IMG/VR virus record: IMGVR_UViG_3300036781_000517
Location: 1-55,868 of that record
Direction: 5' to 3' (one strand)
Origin: a virus
Taxonomy: Duplodnaviria; Caudoviricetes
Length of the DNA: 55,868 nucleotides
Positions within the stretch are counted from its first letter, which is position 1. Each line of letters starts with the position of its first letter. The position numbers and the translations under genes were made by a program. Positions 8,473 through 49,199 of the stretch are shown here, piece after piece. The notes under the pieces were generated by a model, which worked only from the letters and a program-made list of their open reading frames with translations, was not told where the DNA came from and did not search any database.

Positions 8473-9978
8473 CTAGGTGGGAGTGAGCCGGCTGAATGCA
8501 AATCCGTTCGTGGAACTTGCCCAGTCGAAGATGACGGCGGCGTCGAAGACATCATAGCCGCGGGCGGTCTTTTCCTTCGTGTCTTCAACCGGCGTATCGC
8601 TCCAGGGGGTTGGAATGGTCAGCGCTCCGATCTGGGCGGTGATGAACGTGGCGTCGGAGTTGGTGACGCGCGTCCCATACTCATGCCAGCCGACGATGAC
8701 CGGATCGCCGTAGTCGTCGAAGACGTTGTAGCCGTCCAGCGTGGTCGGCTGCGAGCAGAGCCAGACGGAGATCTCCCGCTCAATGCTGTCGGGGTTCTGC
8801 ACCGGCTGGTAGCTGTCGTCGCTGCTCCAGACGGTCAGCGGAAACTCGACCTTTGTCGTATCGCGCCGCAACTGGTATTTGGGGCTCAGGGAAAAGAGCT
8901 GCGTTGTACTGGCTCCCAGCGCACCGGTCTGGTCGCTGCCTGGCGTGAATGTCGAAGCCGTGAAATCCGACTCCGCGGCCGCCTGGCTGGTGTTCGAAGA
9001 TCCCGTTCGCTCCGCCGCCGTGCCGCTCTTCCACACGAGACCAGCCGTGACCGACGACAGGGCGCAGAGGTAATGATCGGTATCGCCGTTGGGGATCCCT
9101 GCCCCATAGGTTCGGCCGAGGCTGTTGATGTAGTCGCGGATGTTGTTCAGCAGGTCGCCATCGACGATTTGGCCGGGGTTGTAAAACCCGCGCGTGTGGG
9201 CGATGTAGTCACCGTCGGCGTCAAAATACCCCTCCCACCCGGCGGTCTGCTCGGTGACGACGTCGGCGGGACTTATCTGGTCGTCGCTTAAATTCCAGCT
9301 CGTGCCGTCATGCTCAAAAAAAAGCGTGCTGTGTTGCTCTTCATCTGATGGCGTGGTGACGTACGTGTTCCACAGCGCCCCATCGGCGTCGTCGTTGAAG
9401 AACTTGCGGTGGAACAGCCCTCGATAGACCGCGAAGCGGGCGCGTTGCCCGTCACTGCCCGCCTGCGAGAGGGTGTAGATCTCCCGCCGCCATTTGCGCA
9501 GGACCGGTGCGAAATCGTACGGCTCGTGCCCGCTCTCGAAATCAGCATTGAATTTGAATGCCGCCCCGTCGATCTGGACCGGAATGTAGGGGCCGTCGTT
9601 GGCGGCATCTCCGCTGTTGATCGTCACCGGCGACTTGTCGCTGGCCAGAAACCCGAGTCCTTCCGGACTGTAGTCGCTCCAATCGTCGTTGAATTTTCGT
9701 ACGTACCAGGTGGCAACCGTATTGATCGCGCACTCGCGAAGCTGGGCCAGTCCGGCGACGTCGATCGCACCGCCTCCGCCCGGCGGAAGGAGCCCAAGAC
9801 ACACCTTGTCGCCGGGTGACAGGGCTGCAACGACGCCCGAGAGCTCCCCTACCCGGTCGGCACGGAGGGCCAGTGCGTTACGAAAATTCACGATCAGGCA
9901 GTCCTGCGCAGCGCCGGTCTGCTTGAGGAATTTATTGCCGGATTGAGCTGTCCAATCCTGGTTCCACCACTCGGCCAC
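8473..9978 (-). CDS. distal tail protein
   Basis: Last gene of the tail operon; acidic and aromatic-rich, 501 aa. Confidence 0.65.
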   Translation of the reverse strand: MAEWWNQDWTAQSGNKFLKQTGAAQDCLIVNFRNALALRADRVGELSGVVAALSPGDKVCLGLLPPGGGGAIDVAGLAQLRECAINTVATWYVRKFNDDWSDYSPEGLGFLASDKSPVTINSGDAANDGPYIPVQIDGAAFKFNADFESGHEPYDFAPVLRKWRREIYTLSQAGSDGQRARFAVYRGLFHRKFFNDDADGALWNTYVTTPSDEEQHSTLFFEHDGTSWNLSDDQISPADVVTEQTAGWEGYFDADGDYIAHTRGFYNPGQIVDGDLLNNIRDYINSLGRTYGAGIPNGDTDHYLCALSSVTAGLVWKSGTAAERTGSSNTSQAAAESDFTASTFTPGSDQTGALGASTTQLFSLSPKYQLRRDTTKVEFPLTVWSSDDSYQPVQNPDSIEREISVWLCSQPTTLDGYNVFDDYGDPVIVGWHEYGTRVTNSDATFITAQIGALTIPTPWSDTPVEDTKEKTARGYDVFDAAVIFDWASSTNGFAFSRLTPT

Positions 9979-10487: not shown

Positions 10488-11429
10488 TCAGATACCAGAG
10501 AGCAGCACGCCGAGATTAGCGGGCTCGTCTTCGTCGTAATCCATTGTCACTACTTGGACCGTATCCGGGGGGTCCGGCATGTCCAGGACGTTTCCGCTTC
10601 CATCAAGTAGGCGCGGCCCAGTCACTGGGTCTTTCTTGGCGTCGAGTATCGGCTTGTGCTCCCGGTGACCGTCATCCTCCTCCGTGTCCAAGAAGTAGAA
10701 GCCTCGGTCAACGATCTTGTGAGTCCAACCGGTCGACCGATAGTGCAGCATCAGCGACACCTGCCAGAATTGGATGCCGTTCCCAACGGTCGTGCTGTAA
10801 TCCGCCTTGGCCAGCTTGATGTTTCCGGACGCGAATGATCGGGTTTGGCCGTACACTGTCAGCGTGATGCTGTCTTTGCTCACCTTGCCGCGCAGCGACG
10901 CGATCAAATCACCGTCGATGCTCCGGGTTTTGTACTGGACGCTGATTTGTTCGTCGTAATAAGTCCTTTTCTCGGTCGGATCAAATGGGTCGTTGGCGGA
11001 ATTGGCCACCGGCACCCGCTTCGAATAGTCGCCGGTTCCGCTGGTGACCCGATATCCGTCGTGCATGTCCTCGGTGCGCTCACAGCCCGTCACGTCGAGT
11101 TGGATATCCCACTTGTCATTCTCGCCGGGCTTGATGGTGGTGTAGGTGACTGTGACGTTGAAGACGGTCGGGCCATCTTCTGACCGCGACGGCTCGACGC
11201 CAGAGCAGCGCAGAATCAGCGGGTAGCGTGGATGCAGGTCGCCGATCTGTGGGACGCGATTGCTATCTCCGTCCACGGCGACCACAGCGCCGGTGGTGGT
11301 CATCTCGCCGATGGTTTCGACGCCCACCTGCCAGAGCTGGACCTCGGTGTATTCGATCAGGCCGTCCTGGCCGAGCGCGACCGTGGTCTTCTCGGAAAAC
11401 GGGCGTTGTCGGACGAATAAAGTGGCCAT
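10488..11429 (-). CDS. distal tail/baseplate hub-like protein
   Basis: First late gene after tape measure; PQIGDLHP, NSANDPF motifs. Confidence 0.65.
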   Translation of the reverse strand: MATLFVRQRPFSEKTTVALGQDGLIEYTEVQLWQVGVETIGEMTTTGAVVAVDGDSNRVPQIGDLHPRYPLILRCSGVEPSRSEDGPTVFNVTVTYTTIKPGENDKWDIQLDVTGCERTEDMHDGYRVTSGTGDYSKRVPVANSANDPFDPTEKRTYYDEQISVQYKTRSIDGDLIASLRGKVSKDSITLTVYGQTRSFASGNIKLAKADYSTTVGNGIQFWQVSLMLHYRSTGWTHKIVDRGFYFLDTEEDDGHREHKPILDAKKDPVTGPRLLDGSGNVLDMPDPPDTVQVVTMDYDEDEPANLGVLLSGI

Positions 11430-11583: not shown

Positions 11584-12297
11584 ATGAAATCACGCTGGAC
11601 GGTGGCGCGGGGTTGCTTCGTCGCGGCAATGGTCGCGCTCGCGGCGTTTATGTTTTGGTCTCTGCTCTCTGGGAGCAGCAAGGGTCGGCCTGCGCCTGCG
11701 GCGCCGCCGTCGCCCCGCGACATCGCGCAGCGCAGCTTCGACGACACGAAGTTGAAACTTGCGAAGGAAATGACTCGCTCGCACCTGCTGTCGGCCATAT
11801 TCTCGGGCTTCTCGCTCCAGTTCGTCGGCTACGATGACGCGGGCAATGCGACTTATCGAGGCAAAGATCGTATCGGGGAAATTCGCGTCACCACGGATGC
11901 TGGCGGAATGATCCTGGTGGCTACGGTGGACGGGACGACGGCAACCCGGAAGGAGCCTGCGGAATCGCGAGTCGCCGACGCGCTTCCCGCCCCCCTCATG
12001 CCATATGGAGCGAGACACGTCGGCGAAGACGACGCGGGCCGAATCATCAAAATCTTCGGTCCGGCGGACAAGGACTGGACAACGCTCCATGACTCCCCGC
12101 GACCGAAAGCGTTCACGCGCTTCATGCTGTACGCCAAAGAGCACGTCCAAATGATCTTTGTTCCGAATGACCTCGATGCCACATCGCGGTCGCCTGGACC
12201 GTTCAACGCATGGCGAGTTTTGGGTTATGGAGATGACCGCGATGATCGGAAGCTGGCGATCGATGAGGTAATGACGCGGATGGCGAAGAAGCAATGA
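11584..12297 (+). CDS. membrane-anchored protein (antisense moron)
   Basis: N-terminal TM helix; GAGG RBS; opposite to tail operon. Confidence 0.8.
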   Translation: MKSRWTVARGCFVAAMVALAAFMFWSLLSGSSKGRPAPAAPPSPRDIAQRSFDDTKLKLAKEMTRSHLLSAIFSGFSLQFVGYDDAGNATYRGKDRIGEIRVTTDAGGMILVATVDGTTATRKEPAESRVADALPAPLMPYGARHVGEDDAGRIIKIFGPADKDWTTLHDSPRPKAFTRFMLYAKEHVQMIFVPNDLDATSRSPGPFNAWRVLGYGDDRDDRKLAIDEVMTRMAKKQ

Positions 12298-12324: not shown

Positions 12325-14490
12325 TCAGACACCGACAACGACCGGCGGAACGCCGAGCTTCCGGGCGAGGTCGGCGTTGACGGTGTAGGATTTGGTTTGC
12401 ACGTCGAGTTGCTGCTTGGCTACGGAGAGCGCGTCGTTGGCGATCGGGGATTGGGCACTGACGACGTACTTCTGGGAGATTTCTTCGGCGCCGACGTGCT
12501 GATCGCCGCCATGGTGCTGAGACTTGTTGAAATCGTTCTGGGTTTTAGCGACGGCCTTGTTGTACTGATCGTTGGTGAGCATTCCGGCCATCAGCATGTC
12601 GTCGAGCTTGCCAATTTGTTCCTGGTATTTCTCTACCGGCGTCATGATGTCTTCGAGGATCTTCTTCCGCTCGTCGAGCATCTTGTTTTCCTGCTGCAAG
12701 CGGTCGAGTGCGGCAGCGTGCTCCGGGTCAGCCTGCTGCATCTGGTACACCTTGGGGTCAATACCGGCCCGCTTGGCGGCGATCTCGTTTTGGAGCTTGG
12801 CAATTTCCTCGGCCGCCTTGTGTTGCTCCTTCATGGCGTTCAACTTGTCCACTTCACCTTGGACCTGCTGTTGTGTTGCGGGATCTGCGTATTTTGCTGC
12901 TTCAGGGCCCAAGCCCCTCTGAAGCGCTTCCATTTCGGCGTGGAGTTTCTTAACGGCCGCGGCGGCCTCATTGAATTGCTTGTAGCCTTCAGCCGACTTG
13001 GCCGAATCGATCATCTTCTGAATGAACTCGTCAGACGCGCCATCTCGCATGGCCTCCCAGATCGCTTTGATCGCTTCGACCGGAAGCCCGAGGTCGGCCA
13101 GCTTATTGCCATCGAAGGCCAGGAACCGCTGGAAGTCGAGCCCCTGGTCCATCTTGTCCTTAAGCTCCAGGAGCTTCATCGACGACTCGAACATTTCATC
13201 CATCGCGGCGGCCCAGTTGTCAGCGCCTTCCGCCATGTTCCTGCCGAGTTCCTCCATCCTCTTTTTGATCCCGCCGGCGGCGGCGTCGAGCTTAGCCTGG
13301 AGCCCGTCCATTTTTGCATCCCATCCGGCCGAGACGCTGCTGTTCGCGGTGGCGCCCATGACGGCCTCTGCGACTTTTTCGATTCCGTACAACACAGCGA
13401 GCAGCGGAAGGAACGGCGTGATTGCCGCGGCGCCCACGACCATCGCCACCGTCCCCCAGTCGTGCCAGAGGTCGATAAGGAGGGCGACGACGTGCCCGAC
13501 CTCACGAATGACGGTGATCACGCCGTTGGCGAACGTTTGTGCGCTGGGCAAGGCGTCCAAAAACATTTGGCCAACGACCTCAATGTACGGCGCAAGAGAC
13601 AGGGTCAGTTGATTTTTCAGTCCGTCCAGCCGCGAGGAGAACTTTTCCCACTCCTCGCCGGCCGCGACGAGTCGGGCAGAGTCCATGTTGTCGAGGACCT
13701 CTTTCGTAGATAGGGACGCCTCGTGCAGCTTTTGCATCCCTTCAACACCGTCGTCTGCGAACGTCTTGATCATCGCCATCCCGCCGGTTTTTCCGAAAAC
13801 ATCCCCAGCAGACCGCATGCGGTCGGTCTGACTCTCAATATGAGCGAGAGCGTTCACCACGTCGGACAGGGCTTTCTCTGCTCCTTCGCCGGCCAGTTTT
13901 TCCGGATCGAGATGAAGTCGGTCAAACGCGGCGGCGGCTTCGGCGCTGCCGCCGGCGGCTTTCGAGATCGCGACCTCCATTTTCCTAAGCGCTCCATCCA
14001 CCTCGCCGCCATCCACGGCCATGCGGTGGGCTGCAATGTGCAGTGTGCCCAGCATGTCGCTGGAAACTCCAAGGGCGCTGGCGGTGATTAGTGTTTGCTT
14101 GGCGGTTTCGATCTGCGCCTCAGCGATCTCCTTGATGGCCATTCCAAGGCCAACTACCCCGACCACAGCAGCCGCCGCTGCAGCGCCGACGACGCCGATG
14201 GCAACTCCTACGGGCCCCATCGAACTTAGGGCCTCGGCTCCCTTGCCAGCCAGGCCGCTGAGACTTTCGGCCGCACCAGAGATCATCGACTCGATGCCGC
14301 TGCCGGAGAGCAGGCCGCCAAGCCCTTCGGCATGGCCGGCCAGTCCTTCCAAATGCTCTCTGATTTTTTCGCCGGCGTGCTCCGCATGTTCAGAGAAATG
14401 ATCGAGATCCTCCTGCGCCTTGTGGACGCCCTTGGAGAAGGCTTCGCTGTGCGCGGAGAGGACAACGTCGATAGCGCCAATGGTGCTCAT
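12325..14490 (-). CDS. tail tape measure protein
   Basis: 721 aa, Ala/Gly-rich helical with hydrophobic segments; follows the chaperone genes. Confidence 0.92.
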   Translation of the reverse strand: MSTIGAIDVVLSAHSEAFSKGVHKAQEDLDHFSEHAEHAGEKIREHLEGLAGHAEGLGGLLSGSGIESMISGAAESLSGLAGKGAEALSSMGPVGVAIGVVGAAAAAAVVGVVGLGMAIKEIAEAQIETAKQTLITASALGVSSDMLGTLHIAAHRMAVDGGEVDGALRKMEVAISKAAGGSAEAAAAFDRLHLDPEKLAGEGAEKALSDVVNALAHIESQTDRMRSAGDVFGKTGGMAMIKTFADDGVEGMQKLHEASLSTKEVLDNMDSARLVAAGEEWEKFSSRLDGLKNQLTLSLAPYIEVVGQMFLDALPSAQTFANGVITVIREVGHVVALLIDLWHDWGTVAMVVGAAAITPFLPLLAVLYGIEKVAEAVMGATANSSVSAGWDAKMDGLQAKLDAAAGGIKKRMEELGRNMAEGADNWAAAMDEMFESSMKLLELKDKMDQGLDFQRFLAFDGNKLADLGLPVEAIKAIWEAMRDGASDEFIQKMIDSAKSAEGYKQFNEAAAAVKKLHAEMEALQRGLGPEAAKYADPATQQQVQGEVDKLNAMKEQHKAAEEIAKLQNEIAAKRAGIDPKVYQMQQADPEHAAALDRLQQENKMLDERKKILEDIMTPVEKYQEQIGKLDDMLMAGMLTNDQYNKAVAKTQNDFNKSQHHGGDQHVGAEEISQKYVVSAQSPIANDALSVAKQQLDVQTKSYTVNADLARKLGVPPVVVGV

Positions 14491-14864
14491 GGGTTTTGCT
14501 TCTTCACGAATGCGAGCATGCCCGCCTTGATCTCGGCGGCGAGGGCTTGGCGGGCGGCTTCTTCGTCTTCTTCTTTGGCTTGCGGTTCGGGATCCGGTTC
14601 AGGGTCGCGCCACTTGATCATGCAGCGGCCGGGGGTGAACGGCTCGGCATCCGGCTTGCGATTGACGTTGTAGATGGCCGAGACGATCTGCCCGGCGAGG
14701 ACGTCAAGCCGCTGATCGCCGATCGGCTCGATTTCCTGATCGAAGGCTTCCCACTCGGACAGCTCACGGCTGTCGATTTCTTCAAGCAGCCGGCGGACGG
14801 TCATGCCGAGATTGGCGGCGAGTCGGAAGTAGAATCGCCGGCCTGGCCGGCACCGGAGTTTTTT
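14487..14864 (-). CDS. tail assembly chaperone, -1 frameshift extension (gpT-like)
   Basis: KLRCRPGRRFYFRLAANLGMTVRRLLEEIDSRELSEWEAF, entered at the slippery site. Confidence 0.85.
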   Translation of the reverse strand, partial: KKLRCRPGRRFYFRLAANLGMTVRRLLEEIDSRELSEWEAFDQEIEPIGDQRLDVLAGQIVSAIYNVNRKPDAEPFTPGRCMIKWRDPEPDPEPQAKEEDEEAARQALAAEIKAGMLAFVKKQNP

Positions 14865-15214
14865 GCGAGGTCCTCGACGTCGGCCTTGGTCAGGCCATTG
14901 ATTTTCTGGGCGAGGTCGAAGAGGCGAGTTATGACTGGCGAGGCCTTCTCGCCGAGCGCCGCGGCGTCGGCGTCGGTGAAGAGGCGGGCACCCTTTTCGT
15001 CGCACAGGCAAATCGCCAGCAGCCGCGCGCGGATGTTTGTTCGGTTCAGCTCGACGGTCTTTCCGCGGACCTTGTAGGTTTCGTCCTCGAACTGGTCGCG
15101 TTCCGTGCCGCTGAGAATGCGGAGGTAGACGTCGCCGCCCCACTCGGGCACGGGGACCTTTTCGAGCTTGGCGCGGTCCTGCGCTTTGAGGATCTGGGAT
15201 TTAGACAGGGACAA
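14801..15214 (-). CDS. tail assembly chaperone (gpG-like)
   Basis: VPVPEWGGDVYLR...LAKN; AAAGGAG RBS, TTG start. Confidence 0.9.
   Translation of the reverse strand: MSLSKSQILKAQDRAKLEKVPVPEWGGDVYLRILSGTERDQFEDETYKVRGKTVELNRTNIRARLLAICLCDEKGARLFTDADAAALGEKASPVITRLFDLAQKINGLTKADVEDLAKNSGAGQAGDSTSDSPPISA
14858..14864 (-). other. Programmed -1 frameshift heptamer A AAA AAC
   Basis: GCA AAA AAC at the end of the chaperone; -1 frame open to the tape measure start. Confidence 0.88.
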
Positions 15215-15234
15215 GGGTTCTCCTTTAGGATTGG

Positions 15235-15753
15235 GTGATGCCGACGAGCAAAAAGATTCACCGCGGCCCCGGCTGGTCTGCGGTCGAGTTTCAGGAATTC
15301 GTGGATGTCACGATGAGCAGCGAGCCGGACCCGGAATGGGTCTTCACGGATCCCGCTGGCCATGTTCACCGCTACCACCAGCGGCCTGGCAACTGGGGTC
15401 GGATGGTGGTTCCGACGGCGATTTGGAAATCGATCCCCGCCATCGATGAGGAGGGGCAAGAGTACGACCGCGGCTACTTTGCCTGCCTGGAGTGCGGAGC
15501 GAGGGTCGATCCGGGAATGCGTCCGACAACTTCACAAAAACTGTCGCCGGGACTCAACGGATTCGACGGGTCATTTCTCTGCAAGAAGCCACCGCAGGTT
15601 GGGGAGACCTTTGATCTCGCGAAATTCATTCAAGGCTTGGAAGGGTCGGCGGTCTGCGTCTCGGTTGGCAAGTCGATCAGCTCCGATTCCGAGGTCAACT
15701 TCGATGTTGGCTGGCGAAGCCTCGGACCCATCACGACTACGTCCCAGCCGTGA
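15235..15753 (+). CDS. antisense tail-tube-like protein with HxH/CxxC insert
   Basis: VDVT...KLSPGLNGFDGSF...GSAVCVSV...VNFDVGWRSLGPI; high GC3. Confidence 0.7.
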   Translation: MMPTSKKIHRGPGWSAVEFQEFVDVTMSSEPDPEWVFTDPAGHVHRYHQRPGNWGRMVVPTAIWKSIPAIDEEGQEYDRGYFACLECGARVDPGMRPTTSQKLSPGLNGFDGSFLCKKPPQVGETFDLAKFIQGLEGSAVCVSVGKSISSDSEVNFDVGWRSLGPITTTSQP

Positions 15754-16171
15754 ACACAACCGGCCCGCTCACCTTGATGGTGATCTTCCGGTTGATCTTG
15801 TCTTCGTTGGGGATTTCGTCGCCGAGTTCCTTGATGTAGCCGGGGAAGGCGAACGTCGAGCCGGAAGTCGAGTTGCTGCCGTCCGGCAATTGGATCTTGT
15901 AGAAGTGGGCGACACCGAGCAGGCCCTGGAGGATCGTCTCCTGAGCCTTGAGGTAGTTGGCCTCATATTCGACCGTCCCCGGCTCGATCCAGCCGGGGAT
16001 GTACTCCTTCACTCCACTGTCCGAGACATAATGGGTGACGTCGACGTCCTTAACGCTTTGCTTGGGTGAACCGACCTTCGTCACTTCGAGCAGCGTCGTG
16101 TAGCTGCCTCCCGACGTGGTCGAGTGGGCGACGGTGGTACCCTTACCGATTTTCGCGGCTGATGCGGACAT
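15737..16171 (-). CDS. major tail tube protein
   Basis: DVDVTH...KEYIPG..EPG...F.GY...ITIKVSG. Confidence 0.92.
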   Translation of the reverse strand: MSASAAKIGKGTTVAHSTTSGGSYTTLLEVTKVGSPKQSVKDVDVTHYVSDSGVKEYIPGWIEPGTVEYEANYLKAQETILQGLLGVAHFYKIQLPDGSNSTSGSTFAFPGYIKELGDEIPNEDKINRKITIKVSGPVVFTAGT

Positions 16172-16220
16172 GGCGCGTTCTCCGTTGGTTGCTGGTTTGC
16201 GTGAAGAATTTCGGGCAGGA

Positions 16221-16916
16221 CTACGAAGTTCCTGTGACGGTGATCGTGTTTGAATCTACGCCGTTGATGCGAATGAGCAGCGTGTGGGGGCTGGCAGTGT
16301 CTTCGATGCCGATGTCCACCATCGTCCCGATGTCGTAGGGCGTGTCGCCGAAATTGAGACTCGTCTCGCCTTCAGTGCCGGCGTCCAGAATGACTTCGCC
16401 GCGCGTGTAGCCGGTATCGCTGGTCCAGACGAGCGTGATCCGATCCGCTGACGGGTCGATCGTCATTCCGTCCTGCGGACTGGTCAGCGTGATGGAGGTG
16501 ATCGCTTCGATGAAGTTGACCGGCCCCGTCACTTTGATCTGGGCCTTGGTCATCATCTTGTCTTCGTTGGGCAGGTCGTCGGACAGGTCTTTAAGGAAGC
16601 CCGCGAACTTGAATCCCGCCGCATCGGGCATGGTGATGCGCCAGAAAGCCGGCACGCCGAGCAGCGCCTTCACCGCATCGCGATCCGATTGGATGTAGTT
16701 CGCCTCGTACTCGACCAAGCCGGGATCGATGAAGACGCCGGGGATGTACTCTTTGGTGTTGTTCGGCGAGAGATAGTGCGTGACGTCGACGTCCTTCACG
16801 GCCTGCTTGGGGGGATTGAGCTTCGTCAGCTCGAGCAGCGGGGTATAGGTCCCGTCTACGGAGTCGCTGTGGGCGAGGAATGTCCCGCGTCCGATGATGG
16901 CGGATGATGCGCTCAT
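16221..16916 (-). CDS. second tail tube paralogue with C-terminal Ig-like extension
   Basis: N-terminal 135 aa clearly homologous to 15737..16171; Thr-rich beta tail. Confidence 0.88.
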   Translation of the reverse strand: MSASSAIIGRGTFLAHSDSVDGTYTPLLELTKLNPPKQAVKDVDVTHYLSPNNTKEYIPGVFIDPGLVEYEANYIQSDRDAVKALLGVPAFWRITMPDAAGFKFAGFLKDLSDDLPNEDKMMTKAQIKVTGPVNFIEAITSITLTSPQDGMTIDPSADRITLVWTSDTGYTRGEVILDAGTEGETSLNFGDTPYDIGTMVDIGIEDTASPHTLLIRINGVDSNTITVTGTS

Positions 16917-17263
16917 TTCGTTTCCGGGTGGATTGGTACAATTGGGCGGTGAAGCAGCGCGACGAGATCAGCCACGTTCAAATCAGAAACCCCAAGGTCC
17001 GCCGCCAATGGGTTCCGATTCGGGAATGCGAGGTCCGCGAGCATCGAGACGAGCCGCTTGATCCCGCCGAGTCCAAGTACTTTCTGCCTCGGCGTTTTGA
17101 GGGGTTCTTCCGGGTAAAACGTCGGCTGGCGAATCGAATCCTTCAGTCGAGCAACGTTGACTGCCTGGTCTTTTTCCCCGAAGACGGAAGCGGATTGCAG
17201 GTGACGCTTCACCTGTCGAAAGGAGGCCTTGTGGCAGAGGACGCAAACCCGCTCCCCCGGTAG
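16904..17263 (+). CDS. antisense hypothetical protein (start uncertain)
   Basis: Plus frame has coding-like codon usage; fills the gap between terminator and tube genes. Confidence 0.55.
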   Translation: MMRSFRFRVDWYNWAVKQRDEISHVQIRNPKVRRQWVPIRECEVREHRDEPLDPAESKYFLPRRFEGFFRVKRRLANRILQSSNVDCLVFFPEDGSGLQVTLHLSKGGLVAEDANPLPR

Positions 17264-17308
17264 CCGCGCCGACAGGACCAGGGCGTCCTGTTCGGGTTTG
17301 TCGCAAAA

Positions 17309-17719
17309 TCACAGCTCGTACCAGAGCCGGACGGATAGATCGGCTTCGTATCGCTGCCCGAGGTCCGGTCCGGCATCGCCGATGGGAACGGCACTCTCGG
17401 GGTTACCGGTGACGAACGCACCTTGCACGACGATCCCGCCCCAGGTCCCAGATTGATTGTCGAGTGCTTTGCGCACGGCGGTCGCCAGCGCTACGGCGTC
17501 GGCATAACTGCCGGCGACGCAGGCGATGTCGATCTCCGCGTCTGCCAGCCCGCTCGAACCGGTGTAGGACCGTGGGAAGTCCGCGCCGGTGGTGTCGTAT
17601 TCGACGTAGGGAATTGCCGGATTGGTCGGAGCCGAGCCAACCGGGTAGACGCGCGTCGCCACCAGGTCGGCGACCGCGCCGTTGCCTCTCAGTTGTGCAA
17701 AAATCGCCTTGCCGCTCAC
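17309..17719 (-). CDS. tail terminator (DUF3168-like)
   Basis: VADLVATRVYP...PYVEY; GTGA coupling. Confidence 0.88.
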   Translation of the reverse strand: MSGKAIFAQLRGNGAVADLVATRVYPVGSAPTNPAIPYVEYDTTGADFPRSYTGSSGLADAEIDIACVAGSYADAVALATAVRKALDNQSGTWGGIVVQGAFVTGNPESAVPIGDAGPDLGQRYEADLSVRLWYEL

Positions 17720-18213
17720 GTCTTTGCCTCGGCTTGAATCTTGGCCCAGAGAAAGGCGACGGCGAGATCGGTGGCCTGCTGGGCCTTGGCGGCAAAGCCG
17801 CGCTGCATGAAATGCTGACCAGGGATGAACTTTCGACCCGCGGCGAGGCTCAGCTCGTGATACCGCCGCTTGGCGCCGGCGCCCTTGCCCTCCGCTCCCT
17901 TGGCCAGACGCTTCCCGGTGAAGTGGCCGCCCTCGACCCAATCCGTGTAGAACGCGCCGGACTTACTCTTTGCGGACGGGGTCGTGATCAGCACGGAGAC
18001 CTCGCCCTTCCTGCGCCGACCCGCGCGAATCTTGATTCCCCTCTGGAGCTTGCCGGTGCGATCCGGCGCTTCACGGACCTGTTCGGCCTGGATGATTTTC
18101 GCGCCGGTCTTGAGCGCATCCTTGGCGAACTGGCTGGCGACCTTCCGTTCGAGCTCGCGCAGTGCCCGATCGAGTTCGTTGACGCCTCGAACTTCAATCG
18201 CTTTAGCGGCCAT
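17716..18213 (-). CDS. HK97 gp10-like tail completion protein
   Basis: IEVRGVNEL...APDRTGKL...VEGG...PGQHFMQRGF. Confidence 0.9.
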   Translation of the reverse strand: MAAKAIEVRGVNELDRALRELERKVASQFAKDALKTGAKIIQAEQVREAPDRTGKLQRGIKIRAGRRRKGEVSVLITTPSAKSKSGAFYTDWVEGGHFTGKRLAKGAEGKGAGAKRRYHELSLAAGRKFIPGQHFMQRGFAAKAQQATDLAVAFLWAKIQAEAKT

Positions 18214-18557
18214 CAGGCGGGCAATTCGGTTGCGAACACAGCGAGCGAGTGATTGCGCTCTTCGACGTTGAGGACAGTGTTGATGGAGAACGATCGATCG
18301 CCCCAGATGATCAGGTCCGTGGGCTTTACCGGCTGCGTCGAGTTGTAGCGCATCGTGATCTTGTGGCTGACGCTGGCGGCGAACGACTTGGCGTACTCCG
18401 CCTCGCGCCCACTCACGGGCTCGATCTTGCACCACGGCCGCGCGTAGGTGATCTGATTGGGGATCGGCGCACCGTATTCGTCCTGCGCGGATTCCGCCGC
18501 TTCGTTGCGCTGCAACTCGACGCGGTGGCGAAGTTCGCCGGCTTGGATGCGCTCCAT
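18213..18557 (-). CDS. head closure / head-tail adaptor
   Basis: AGELRHRVELQ...IEPVSGRE...KITMRY. Confidence 0.92.
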   Translation of the reverse strand: MERIQAGELRHRVELQRNEAAESAQDEYGAPIPNQITYARPWCKIEPVSGREAEYAKSFAASVSHKITMRYNSTQPVKPTDLIIWGDRSFSINTVLNVEERNHSLAVFATELPA

Positions 18558-20284
18558 CAGTCCTCAACGATGTGGAATTCCAGCACGCATGCCGCCGTGT
18601 GAGCGCGGGCGTATGGCGCGTTGGTCCCGAGCCGGCCCTGCATCGACTCTCCGGGCTTGAGTTTGCCGAACGGATAGAACGTGCCGGCGACCTGAATGCC
18701 GATCTCGATGTAGTTCGTCGCGTCGGTATTGAGCAGGGAGTAGACCCCGGCCGTCGAAAGATCGCCGACCGGAATCGCGACGCCTTCGCTGCCGGCGGCG
18801 ACGCTGAAGGCGCCCTCGGATGAGCGGTTTCCCGTCATGTCGATCGTCGTCGGGATTTTCCGGGAAATGCTCAGTGCCCCCTTGCTGACGGTGAGCTGCT
18901 GCAACATTGTGATTTCGCGTGCCATGCCGATTCCTTGTTCAACGAACCAGAGTCCGATCGCGCCGGCCGGACGAACGAACGTCCGGGCTTGCAGCTCGTC
19001 GGGAAGGGTCAAGTCCGCCGAGTCCACGCCCGGCGCGAAGGTGATGCGGTAGACCCGCCAATGACCGGCGGGACCGACGCAAAGGGCGCCGCTCACGAGC
19101 GCCGATGCGTCGAAGAGGACAGTTGTTTTCGTCAGCGGCCGGACAGACGTCGCAGATCGGGCCAACCACTGGTACTCGGCGAGCAGATCGCTCATCACGC
19201 CGTCGTCGCCCGCGCCTTTCGCCGTGCTGAGGGCGTCGGTCGGTGGATTGAAGTAAAGAAAATTCGTCGTCCCACACGTCAGAAGCAGGTGGTAGAGCAG
19301 CTCCTGGTAGTAGTCCGTGTCGTGCAGGACCTCGTTAAATCTGATGTCCTTGTACGCTCGATATTGCACCCAAGGCAGAATCGGAACGCTACTGGCCCGG
19401 ACCAGCGCCCGCATGTTGCTGATCTGCCAGCCCAGCGTCGCCATCGGGTTGGTCCATACTGGCGTCCCAACCTCACGGCTGTGGGGAGGTCTGCCCAGAG
19501 GGTAAAACACGACGCCCCCGAGATTGGTGTATGTCGCGGGCGACTGATGCGTGCCGGGTACGTCGTAGCCAATAGTTTCCCACCCGTTGTAATCGACCAG
19601 AGGGTCGGACTCTGGCGCGATGATGTAGGCGCCGCTGTCGTCACCGCCGAATTGCGAGTAACCCGCGTCGGGGAAAACACTGACGAGGCTGTCATAGATC
19701 GCGGCCCGCAACGCCTGCCCGAGCAGATGCGTCATTACCGCGTTCCATCGCTTGGCTTCGAGGTCGCTTCCGGGTGGGACCTCGCGATCGACCACGACGC
19801 CGTCGTACAGTGCTCGGGCCGACGGCGAGCCCTCGGCGAAGCGAGGGTCCGCAGCGATCGCCTCGTATTGTGGATTGCCGCCTGTTACCGAAATTACAAA
19901 GTCGGACAGGTTGAAGCCGGCTTGCTCAATATCTGTAACGACAAAATCAATCGTCGCTCCGGCGTCTTTCACAGCCTGGAGCAGCGGGACGAGCCACGCC
20001 TGTACTGCGGCGGTGCCGGTCGGAAACCACGGGCTGATAAAATCTACAAAGTCGCCGTCGGCGTCCTTGCACCGATCCTCCGTGTGCCCGAGCAGCAGCG
20101 TGTGGAAGTCCGAAAGGACGATCACCCGCTTGCCGATCGGCATCGTCAGGAGCTGGGTCGCAACGTTGCCAGGGTCATCCGCCACATGCACGAACGGCAT
20201 CGTGACGACGTGATCCAGACCGCTCGCTGTCGGCGTCAGCGTGTCGGCGGTGAAGGCGAAGGCGGTGTAGCCGGAGATCACCAC
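18557..20284 (-). CDS. two-part protein: large enzyme-like domain plus 122-aa structural domain (internal start 18925)
   Basis: 575 aa ORF coupled on both sides; internal AAGGA-ATG (MAREIT...). Confidence 0.7.
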   Translation of the reverse strand: MVISGYTAFAFTADTLTPTASGLDHVVTMPFVHVADDPGNVATQLLTMPIGKRVIVLSDFHTLLLGHTEDRCKDADGDFVDFISPWFPTGTAAVQAWLVPLLQAVKDAGATIDFVVTDIEQAGFNLSDFVISVTGGNPQYEAIAADPRFAEGSPSARALYDGVVVDREVPPGSDLEAKRWNAVMTHLLGQALRAAIYDSLVSVFPDAGYSQFGGDDSGAYIIAPESDPLVDYNGWETIGYDVPGTHQSPATYTNLGGVVFYPLGRPPHSREVGTPVWTNPMATLGWQISNMRALVRASSVPILPWVQYRAYKDIRFNEVLHDTDYYQELLYHLLLTCGTTNFLYFNPPTDALSTAKGAGDDGVMSDLLAEYQWLARSATSVRPLTKTTVLFDASALVSGALCVGPAGHWRVYRITFAPGVDSADLTLPDELQARTFVRPAGAIGLWFVEQGIGMAREITMLQQLTVSKGALSISRKIPTTIDMTGNRSSEGAFSVAAGSEGVAIPVGDLSTAGVYSLLNTDATNYIEIGIQVAGTFYPFGKLKPGESMQGRLGTNAPYARAHTAACVLEFHIVED

Positions 20285-24726: not shown

Positions 24727-24795
24727 CGCAGCCGGGAGGGATCGAACCTCCGCGCGGGGGTACAACCCCCTGCTCTACCGCTGAGCTACAGCCGC
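24727..24795 (-). ncRNA. tRNA-like element with 5-nt anticodon loop (Thr-UGU-like)
   Basis: Acceptor GCGGCTG/CGGCTGC, D arm GCTC-AGCGGTA-GAGC, GGGGG-TTGTA-CCCCC, T arm GGAGG-TTCGATC-CCTCC. Confidence 0.85.
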
Positions 24796-47082: not shown

Positions 47083-47265
47083 CGATTCAATCCCGCGCAG
47101 GGGTGCGTGGGGCTAACGGGCAGCCTCCAGGGTAGAGGCTGCGAGAGGGAGCCATGTCTCGTTTCGACCGGCGGAGCCGGGCCAACGCGCCGCCGATTAT
47201 TTCCGACCCACCAATTTACCGGCGACCGCTGCGCGCCTTTTGGGCCAGCGCGGGAGACCCGAGGG

Positions 47266-47595
47266 GTGATCAGACTGGTGGACAAGCCGACGTTGGCGTC
47301 GCATCTCGGGGTGACGGTGCGGACGCTAAACAAGGAGATCCAACGCCACGAGTTGCCCAAGCCGTTTCGGCTGGGCCGCAAGGCGTACTGGCAGGAGGCC
47401 ACGATCGAGGCGCACTTCGCCGACCTGGAGCGTCGCGGCCAGCGCCCAAAAAGGAGAGCGGAGAACACGGACGAACTGAAGGCCAGGAATGGCCCGGCCC
47501 TTTGTTCGCCGGGTTGTCCATGCGTCGACGAGGGATCCCGAACGTCTCCATCTACAAGCCCAAGAGCCGGTCCACCGCCCGCCACAAATGGCTAG
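47266..47595 (+). CDS. xis: AlpA-like excisionase (start uncertain)
   Basis: LASHLGVTVRTL...ELPKPFRLGRKAYW; directly upstream of int. Confidence 0.8.
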   Translation: MIRLVDKPTLASHLGVTVRTLNKEIQRHELPKPFRLGRKAYWQEATIEAHFADLERRGQRPKRRAENTDELKARNGPALCSPGCPCVDEGSRTSPSTSPRAGPPPATNG

Positions 47596-49199
47596 TGGCG
47601 TACCTGGCCAACCCCGACGACCTGCACCGCACCGTCGAAAGCGTAAGCACCGATTACGAGGTGACGCGCCAGTACGCCTGCGAGCTGTCGCGCAAGCTCG
47701 ACCGCCGGCGGCTGGGCCTCATCACCGCCGATGACGACAAACTCGCCGCCGCCGCCGCGATCCCTCTGGCCGATCACATCACCGACTTTGCCGACTGGCT
47801 CATTGCCCGGGGCGTGACGGAGAAACAATCCGGCGAGGTAAAGAGCCGGCTGACCAAGCTCGCTGAATGGTGCGAGTTCCATCGCCTCGGCGAGCTGTCC
47901 GCCAGCAAGGTGCAATCCGGAGTGAACGACTGGCGAGACGAAAACGGCCGGGCGGCAGAGACCTGCAACAAGTACCTCAAAGCCGCCAAGCAGTTCTCGA
48001 AATGGGCGTCGTCTAAGGCCGAACGGAAGATCACGGAGCACGTGTTTTCCGACCTGACCAGCTACAACGTCGAGGCCGATCGTCGGCACGTCCGCCGATC
48101 GCTGACCGGCGATGAATTGGCGGCGCTCCTCGCGGCCACGGAGCGAGGCGAAGTGTGGGTCAGGGACGGGCGGAGGATGTCGGGCCCGGACCGCCGCATC
48201 CTGTACACGCTTGCGGCCTACACCGGCCTGCGTCGCAGCGAGCTGGCCAGCCTGACCCCCGAGAGCTTCGACTTGGGCGAGCGTACTCCGACCGTCACCG
48301 TCGACGCCGCTCACAGCAAGCACCGGCGCACGGACGTCCTCTTCGTTCGCGCCGACGTCGCCGCCCTGCTCAGGCCCTGGCTCGACACCAAGGCGGCCGG
48401 CAAGCGCATCTTCGCCGTCCCCGACAAAGCGTTCCTGATGCTCTACGCCGACATGGCCGCCGCGGGTGTAGCCATCAGCACCACCAGCGGCATTGCCGAC
48501 TTCCACAGTCTGCGGCACACGTTCGGCACGATCCTCGCCGCCAGCGGGGCGCCCATCACAGTGCTCCGCGAGCTGATGCGGCACACCGACATCCGCCTCA
48601 CGATGCGTTACGTGCATCCGACGCTGCACGACCAGGTCAAAGCCCTCGACGGCCTGCCAGGGCTCGCCCAGCCGCGGCAACAGCAGCAGCTACGCGCGAC
48701 GGGCACCTACGGAGGCGCGGCCCCGGATAGCGCTGCGCCGGGCGCTGAAAACGAAACAGGCCCGCTTAAAAAGCGGGCCGGCTTCAACCGCAAGGGCGTG
48801 TCCAACGCTGCACTTACCGAATGTTCCCGGCAGGTCTCGAACCTGCAACCTTCGGCTTCGGAGGCCGACGCCACAACACCCCCCCCATCCGACGCGCAAG
48901 TACCAGCCGCGGCGCGACTTTGCAATCATGAAAACCCAATAGGCGCGTCAGCGCGATCGGGTCCCTCAGGGACGCCTGGGGACGAGCAGGGACGACCCGA
49001 GAACGCAGAGCGCTGCGCCACGCGCTTACCAGGGAGCGACGCACCGCCGCCAACTTCGGTCTACGGAACCGACGCCGCGATCACGCCTGCCGCGCCTGCC
49101 GCCCCATTGGATCTGGACGAAATTCGGGCCGCCTACGAGCAGCTCGGCCGCCTCCTCGGCAAGGCCCCGCCACCCCCCGTCACGGAGGACGAAGATTGA
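47520..49199 (+). CDS. int: tyrosine integrase with long C-terminal tail
   Basis: TGLRRSEL, HSLRHT, MRH, MRY catalytic motifs. Confidence 0.96.
   Translation: MRRRGIPNVSIYKPKSRSTARHKWLVAYLANPDDLHRTVESVSTDYEVTRQYACELSRKLDRRRLGLITADDDKLAAAAAIPLADHITDFADWLIARGVTEKQSGEVKSRLTKLAEWCEFHRLGELSASKVQSGVNDWRDENGRAAETCNKYLKAAKQFSKWASSKAERKITEHVFSDLTSYNVEADRRHVRRSLTGDELAALLAATERGEVWVRDGRRMSGPDRRILYTLAAYTGLRRSELASLTPESFDLGERTPTVTVDAAHSKHRRTDVLFVRADVAALLRPWLDTKAAGKRIFAVPDKAFLMLYADMAAAGVAISTTSGIADFHSLRHTFGTILAASGAPITVLRELMRHTDIRLTMRYVHPTLHDQVKALDGLPGLAQPRQQQQLRATGTYGGAAPDSAAPGAENETGPLKKRAGFNRKGVSNAALTECSRQVSNLQPSASEADATTPPPSDAQVPAAARLCNHENPIGASARSGPSGTPGDEQGRPENAERCATRLPGSDAPPPTSVYGTDAAITPAAPAAPLDLDEIRAAYEQLGRLLGKAPPPPVTEDED
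48747..48779 (-). terminator. Minus-strand terminator downstream of the att tRNA fragment
   Basis: ggcccgctt/aagcgggcc stem followed by tgtttcgtttt on the minus strand. Confidence 0.7.
48822..48871 (-). other. attP core: 3' part of tRNA-Arg(CCG)
   Basis: TCGGC-CTCCGAA-GCCGA anticodon arm, GCAGG-TTCGAGA-CCTGC T arm, CGGGAAC-A; no 5' half. Confidence 0.9.

Follow-up and report, generated by a model that had tools for sequence, protein, structure and literature searches.

The window analysed here is a linear virus record of 55,868 bp from a soil metagenome (IMG/VR IMGVR_UViG_3300036781_000517; CheckV completeness estimate, 81%), the minus strand of which carries a siphophage late module. Wedged between a tail tube gene and the tail assembly chaperone gene of this module is an open reading frame (ORF) on the plus strand, at positions 15238–15753. 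It is a genuine protein-coding gene, and the layout in which it stands is that of a non-contiguous operon. Its predicted product, a soluble all-β protein of about 19 kDa, is a member of a widespread family for which neither Pfam nor PHROGs has a model and which is defined by the invariant motif D-P-x-W-x3-D-x2-G-H-x-H ... C-x2-C. The gene is not a tube paralogue. It is rather probable that it is an independently transcribed moron, encoding a probable His2Cys2 zinc-binding protein that is expressed when the late genes are off and that binds a partner. Its role would most probably lie in phage–host or phage–phage conflict, where it could serve in defence, counter-defence or host takeover.

A plus-strand gene between the tube gene and the chaperone gene was proposed in the initial annotation, and both the ORF list and the translation agree with this. 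The 522-bp gap between the two minus-strand genes contains no long ORF of that strand wholly inside it, and is filled by the plus-strand ORF. Translation from the ATG at 15238 corresponds to the public gene call (P0002, identical 171 residues), and an alternative GTG start at 15235 would yield 172 residues. The distance of 20 bp proposed between the divergent starts is exact when measured from the chaperone start (15214, a TTG following AAGGAG) to the GTG, and is 23 bp to the ATG. The GC contents of the first, second and third codon positions are 0.58, 0.49 and 0.72, the third-position value (GC3) being higher in the flanking genes (0.80–0.82). Codon usage was scored as log-odds trained on 13 late genes, which score 0.40–0.55 but constitute the training set. 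The frame of the ORF ranks first among the six, with +0.185 bits per codon, the five others being negative.

An exhaustive phmmer search with the encoded protein found 232 matching proteins at E ≤ 1e-3, 17 of them at E ≤ 1e-10, the best non-self match having an E value of 4.8e-21 and 38% identity. A word-indexed homologue search returned only the protein itself, and a related-locus search with the single protein returned no relative. Long ORFs are frequent at 60% GC, and with 201 ORFs of at least 110 residues in the window, this one could be a chance occurrence in GC-rich spacer DNA and no gene. The probability of this is negligible in view of the 232 homologues with invariant residues, the high-confidence predicted fold and the best coding frame of the six. 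The homologues, the AlphaFold2 model and the residue conservation had already led to the rejection of the chance reading.

The family was examined in an alignment of 150 sequences, the best among the 232 matches. The conserved core, residues 1–110 of the window protein, has an occupancy of 0.83–1.00 at residues 11–110 and of 0.54 at residues 1–10, and most phmmer matches span approximately residues 20–110 of the query. Within the signature, D38 and H42 are found in all 150 sequences, W34 in 149, H44 in 148, G41 in 144 and D31 in 141. The window protein has all of W34, D38, H42, H44, C83 and C86. The family consensus reads IDVT..EPDP.W..TD.AGH.H.W...PTL.W...GH..C..CG..V.PG.R. One sequence left in these counts, P0027, is probably a false member: this low-complexity protein of 738 residues matches the query with an E value of 1.6e-9, contains five FTDPSGHVHT-like repeats and has no CxxC.

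A hidden Markov model (HMM) built from the family alignment retrieves members in viral and bacterial contigs. In Pfam, the window protein has no match at E ≤ 0.01, and 56 members gave scattered weak matches (DUF7129 in 4 of the 56); in PHROGs, only single-member matches were obtained across the family. Where a source name is given, for 5 of the 12 members listed, it is "hypothetical protein". No transmembrane segment is found in the window protein, the maximum Kyte–Doolittle mean over 19 residues being 1.03. An HNH endonuclease, an idea raised by the terminase neighbours of some members, was provisionally rejected: no HNH family is found among those listed for the 56 members, and the models are all-β in the core.

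The conservation of GHxH together with CxxC in hairpin knuckles suggests that they form one His2Cys2 zinc site. In the AlphaFold2 model, C83 closes the strand formed by residues 75–83 and C86 lies in the next loop, while H42 precedes the strand 43–45 that holds H44. The ORF protein had been annotated as containing a metal-binding insert. The supposed insert is in fact the conserved core of the family, in which the putative zinc ligands are invariant. A profile search against the PDB found nothing below an E value of 0.1, but gave weak matches to zinc ribbons (RPB12, L24e, L32; E 0.36–0.9). Zinc ribbons are grouped with the beta-tent/CULT/Yippee domains as small β modules pinned by zinc. All matches to such modules remain below significance, and the ligand set in the window family would be His2Cys2, in contrast to Cys4.

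The C-terminal part of the protein, residues 111–171, is an extension particular to a long-form subfamily. Its occupancy in the alignment is 0.19–0.68 overall and 0.19–0.20 at residues 111–130, and by our own reading of the match table 23 of the 149 non-self matches listed extend past residue 130. The long-form alignment shows a shared C-terminal pattern, PG..G.a.v ... v.F...G. The AlphaFold2 model of the window protein, from an alignment of 56 rows, has a mean predicted local distance difference test (pLDDT) score of 94.9 and a predicted template modelling score of 0.71, with no helix of four residues or longer. The model of a short-form member of 129 residues reaches a mean pLDDT of 95.2. 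In the long-form model, the C-terminal extension and the N-terminal hairpin would together probably give a barrel resembling those of tail tubes and PilZ domains.

Foldseek returned nothing at E ≤ 1e-3 for the long-form model, its weak top matches being mostly tail tubes. In a comparison with 48,161 chains, 33 of the top 50 were by our own count of the tube, Hcp or baseplate-hub type; the alignments are reported as ranges (model residues 9 or 11 to 171, about 87 aligned) in which the pairing of residues is not visible. In the ESM Atlas, feature matches score 0.78–0.79 and structure rows have template modelling scores of 0.30–0.38, and PilZ, phage tail and unknown clusters are mixed with none standing out. 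A fold search with the 129-residue short-form model revealed no tube likeness and no clear solved relative. Because the long form resembles tubes weakly and in part and the short form does not, the barrel seemingly arises only with the optional C-terminal strands. The simpler history is that of a zinc-module protein gaining strands, rather than that of a tube protein gaining an insert.

The position of the gene was compared with that in 73 viral loci encoding a related chaperone (35–57% identity), 65 of which extend at least 1200 bp upstream of the chaperone gene. In 58 of these 65, no more than 60 bp separate the chaperone start from the end of a same-strand ORF of at least 90 residues. The remaining seven have gaps of 118–376 bp, some of which may result from the choice of ORF starts, and the gap in the window measures 522 bp. 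None of the 73 loci encodes a family member. In loci L002 and L011, the terminator gene, two tube genes and the chaperone gene follow one another without a gap, a second phrog_158 gene occupying the slot before the chaperone gene. Both tube genes are present in the window as well, together with 522 additional bases bearing the gene under study. As the related phages lack the 522-bp segment and their chaperone gene directly follows the (second) tube gene, the segment was acquired by insertion here. Since the gene is inserted on the opposite strand within the operon, the late transcript running through the tube, chaperone and tape measure genes must cross it in antisense. A scan for insertion-site repeats found none of note.

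In the mechanism that is envisaged, the gene would form a moron cassette, transcribed from a promoter of its own where the chaperone gene begins. A weak σ70-like promoter match lies there; the scan found one such site, compared with 0.2 expected in shuffled sequences. An AGGA Shine–Dalgarno-like motif is present at 15227–15230, 7 nt ahead of the ATG. Terminator predictions were not above those in shuffled sequences (4 found, 2.2 expected). Among sequencing runs, the sequence is listed for a single one, probably the source DNA run, and for no RNA run. The gene would be expressed while the late operon is off, in lysogeny or early infection, and convergent late transcription would lower its expression, as reported for TaiEcA in phage phi80 (PMC11364771). 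In the protein, H42, H44, C83 and C86 would hold one structural zinc ion pinning a small β module, and the conserved acidic loop with the Trp, which adjoins the zinc site, would bind a protein or nucleic acid partner.

The genomic surroundings of relatives were surveyed in viral contigs by searching for a degenerate DNA pattern and filtering the matches with an HMM. Of 47 pattern matches, 39 were confirmed members, including six loci from an alignment-based search. The contexts cover about 45 members, with neighbours identified for about 12, and the gene calls at these loci are crude ORF picks. In locus L079, the member is on the opposite strand between the head protease gene and the next late gene, with the portal and terminase genes upstream. 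In L241 it lies on the opposite strand between the large terminase and portal genes, and in L225, also on the opposite strand, beside a head protease homologue. Thus, with the window included, four independent phages have a member in antisense orientation flanked by head, packaging or tail genes that are essential, which suggests selection for expression uncoupled from the late genes. Such uncoupling is typical of conflict genes.

Other members are found elsewhere. One is among small genes downstream of a primase (L076), and others are in the company of small genes, most of which match no family (L078, L077 and L080, the neighbours in L077 being outside the family scan). In a viral contig (L075, 2282–3547, plus strand), a full long-form domain forms an in-frame fusion with a NeuB domain, of the sialic-acid-synthase type; the gene belongs to a sugar operon of the nonulosonic-acid type that encodes an epimerase, an oxidoreductase, a cytidylyltransferase and an aminotransferase. 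A tblastn search of cultured phages with the L079 member retrieved a single record, that of Streptomyces phage Kromp, and the same search with the ORF protein, P0014, P0008 or P0040 gave no match. The member in Kromp, gene 67, is on the sense strand in the right arm with hypothetical genes as neighbours. The bacterial genome contigs in which members were found come from actinobacteria (Kitasatospora, Actinoallomurus and several metagenome-assembled genomes), one member lying beside tail-fibre-like genes. The recurrence of the family in soil phages, actinobacterial contigs and a cultured Streptomyces phage (Kromp gp67) makes it amenable to experiments at the bench. The family comprises at least 232 representative clusters; its putative zinc ligands are invariant, and its structures are predicted with very high confidence.

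Several observations weigh against the moron explanation. Most members are co-oriented with their small neighbours, as far as the crude gene calls tell. The member in L223 is on the sense strand, where it overlaps a head morphogenesis gene at its start, and placement on the opposite strand is therefore not a rule of the family. A tyrosine integrase was detected in one of the five carrier records tested (Kromp), and none was found in two carrier records that are at least 90% complete, where serine integrases were not searched for; the absence of tyrosine integrase from two near-complete carriers means that a role restricted to lysogens is not general. The promoter of the window gene is a single weak match to a consensus that may not be that of the host. 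Finally, the weak recurrent matches of the long-form model to tube folds would be explained only as convergence on a common small barrel.

Two tail-targeting systems are among the closest points of comparison, and confirm the remark in the initial annotation that prophage-encoded blockers of tail assembly exist. TaiEcA of Escherichia phage phi80 is a protein of 26.1 kDa that inhibits tail assembly and is encoded before the packaging module (He et al. 2024, PMC11364771). Its gene is divergent inside the late operon controlled by Q, which also carries a cognate anti-Tai gene. The lysogen expresses TaiEcA, and expression of Q brought its level down. The gene under study shares with TaiEcA the situation of an opposite-oriented accessory gene inside the late operon of a siphophage, temperate for phi80 and possibly so for the window, but no counter-defence partner akin to anti-Tai is evident beside it. 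Tab of Pseudomonas phage JBD26 (Patel et al. 2024, PMC10884400) is a tail assembly blocker directed at the tails of other phages. Its gene is a small moron that interrupts a series of essential late genes in a temperate phage, and the gene under study is probably another; a putative zinc motif is found in the window protein, whereas none is mentioned for Tab in the portion of that report considered. The placement in the window is of the Tab/Tai type, with an insertion on the opposite strand between the tube and chaperone genes and an integrase domain encoded in the same record. It is one more case of a known layout, that of backward accessory genes in phage late operons, by which a defence gene is linked to the lytic switch in phi80.

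A different explanation was considered as well. The window protein was initially annotated as a tube-fold decoy in which a zinc module replaces the hairpin that mediates ring stacking, and which caps or poisons the tubes of superinfecting phages. The peptide strings on which this was based are all present in the translations of the ORF and of the tube gene, and the segment of some 70 residues with HVH and CLEC noted between DVT and K..PG is indeed there, with about 75 residues from DVT to KLSPG. Nevertheless, the likeness of the two proteins judged by eye is no better than chance in sequence, the single-pair BLASTP E values being 0.57 with tube 1 and 2.3 with tube 2. In Pfam and PHROGs the ORF protein matches no tube family at E ≤ 1, whereas both neighbouring tube genes do, and hhalign of 24 long-form members against 20 tube homologues gave a probability of 0.09% with an E value of 0.59 over 12 columns. 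No similarity by HMM, BLAST or profile–profile comparison thus links the protein to siphophage tubes (phrog_158; Phage_TTP_11 and Phage_TTP_12, PF16460/PF16461; λ V-like; solved structures 8gtb, 6tba and 8k36). About 77 of its residues, including the invariant core, have no counterpart in these proteins, and siphophage tubes are encoded on the sense strand between the tail terminator and the chaperone, in contrast to the gene under study. At the level of the fold, weak matches of the tube type recur (33 of the 50 best), with about 87 of the approximately 94 residues outside the zinc module aligned, and the same is seen in the weak Foldseek top matches; the profile search matched no PDB tube. 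The adjacent tube genes and the existence of Tab (PMC10884400) and Tai (PMC11364771) as moron-encoded tail-assembly blockers also speak for a decoy. Against it, the conserved part of the family is the supposed insert, most members lack the C-terminus that completes the barrel, and the short form has no tube likeness. Long-form members are encoded away from tail genes, in L078 among unknown small genes and in L075 as the NeuB fusion in the sugar operon. The other antisense copies are in head and packaging modules and not beside tubes. The prediction of a complex between tube 1 and the ORF protein scored 0.00 in both runs, which gives no verdict and counts neither for nor against binding. The so-called insert probably represents the core with which the family began, to which one subfamily added the tube-like barrel. 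A tube decoy, made in the lysogen and silenced by late transcription during the lytic cycle of its own phage, is very unlikely. Similarly small is the chance that the long form is a prophage tail poison, with a tube-like barrel recruited around the zinc module and transcription against the late operon. If true, such a chain-terminating tube mimic would represent a third tail-assembly defence, unrelated to Tab and Tai. The case calls for caution, as a short motif likeness to a neighbouring gene, seen by eye, was not homology.

The resemblance of the long-form barrel to PilZ domains could also indicate a sensor of a small ligand such as cyclic di-GMP. PilZ domains are characterized by the motifs RxxxR and D/NxSxxG. 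Neither is conserved in two long-form alignments, PF07238 has no match at E ≤ 1, and this function is hardly credible. An early or lysogenic regulator of the zinc-ribbon type, binding nucleic acid and acting on phage or host transcription or translation, would be in keeping with the weak profile matches of HxH...CxxC to zinc ribbons of the transcription and translation machineries (RPB12, L24e and L32, at the E values given above), and with the many members that belong to runs of small genes in early regions, close to genes for a primase, a helix-turn-helix protein and a sigma factor. However, these matches are far from significant, no DNA-binding family was matched, and the conserved loop is acidic (D31 and D38; EPDP in the consensus), which is unusual for a surface that binds nucleic acid. 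Such a regulator is unlikely. The protein could instead act late in the phage's own morphogenesis or as an accessory factor of its virion, an assembly helper being one example, and its opposite-strand placement would be incidental. Five members are located within structural modules (window, L079, L225, L241 and L223), that of L223 overlapping a head morphogenesis gene on the sense strand. But four of the five are on the opposite strand, hence uncoupled from late transcription, and other members are in non-structural regions. The gene is moreover absent from the 73 related tail loci and therefore dispensable for this type of tail, so that a late accessory function appears decidedly unlikely. 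The moron expressed apart from the late genes is retained as the preferred explanation, and the features on which it is based are given in Table 1 together with the neighbouring genes.

Table 1. Features of the gene at 15238–15753 and of the surrounding late tail module (window coordinates)
Feature	Position	Strand	Remarks
Gene under study	15238..15753	+	171 residues and stop; long-form member of an unnamed phage/mobile-element family
Conserved family core, residues 1–110	15238..15567	+	N-terminal β-hairpin, then putative zinc module
Signature D31-P-x-W34-x3-D38-x2-G41-H42-x-H44 (DPEWVFTDPAGHVH)	15328..15369	+	From the 150-sequence alignment
C83-L-E-C86 knuckle	15484..15495	+	C83 in 149/150, C86 in 149/150; presumed second half of the His2Cys2 zinc site
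C-terminal β extension, residues 111–171	15568..15750	+	Long-form subfamily only
Promoter-like match, TAGACA-18 nt-TAGGAT	15202..15231	+	Weak σ70-like; ends 7 nt before the ATG
Overlap of convergent 3′ ends, gene under study and tube gene 1	15737..15753		17 bp
Tail terminator	17309-17941	-	phrog_347, E 1.6e-8
Competing ORF in 392-bp gap	16904-17263	+	119 residues; no family match
Competing ORF in 392-bp gap	16913-17212	-	99 residues; no family match
Major tail (tube) protein 2	16221..16916	-	231 residues; phrog_158, E 3.8e-12
Major tail (tube) protein 1	15737..16171	-	144 residues; phrog_158, E 2.8e-16; upstream late gene
Tail assembly chaperone, G-like	14801..15214	-	phrog_344, E 3.2e-33; Phage_TAC_1, E 9.8e-5; divergent from the gene under study
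Tail assembly chaperone, T-like frame	14487..15143	-	Overlapping frameshift partner; Phage_tail_T, E 2.1e-17; phrog_337, E 7.8e-23
721-residue ORF in tape measure slot	12325..14490	-	Assigned by position and size only; directly downstream of the chaperone pair

The two tube genes of the window (15737–16916, minus strand) are in tandem and both match phrog_158. Tube gene 1 also matches Phage_TTP_11 and Phage_TTP_12, with E values of 2e-5 and 4e-5. In an alignment of tube homologues, the two proteins are 57% identical, tube 2 having a C-terminal extension of about 90 residues. Two adjacent phrog_158 genes are also present in L002 (3121–3978) and L011 (3050–3971), and the duplication is thus a feature of the lineage. 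The gap of 392 bp (16917–17308) that separates tube gene 2 from the tail terminator gene is covered by rival ORFs on both strands, with an ambiguous coding signal.

A second opposite-strand ORF is found in the tail module at 11584–12297 (plus strand), flanked by the gene that occupies the tape measure slot and by the next distal tail gene. This ORF encodes 237 residues with a hydrophobic N-terminus, has a GC3 of 0.71 and no match in Pfam or PHROGs, and may be another moron. Three large late ORFs on the minus strand, at 18557–20284, 8473–9978 and 10488–11429 (575, 501 and 313 residues), have no match in PHROGs at E ≤ 1e-3, a sign that current families represent this phage lineage poorly.

A tRNA-Thr gene (anticodon TGT) is located within the structural gene region at 24727–24795 (minus strand). 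The ORF at 47154–49199 (plus strand) encodes 681 residues, which is unusually long for a phage integrase, and includes a tyrosine recombinase domain (Phage_integrase) at residues 316–490; a temperate lifestyle with lysogeny is therefore possible.
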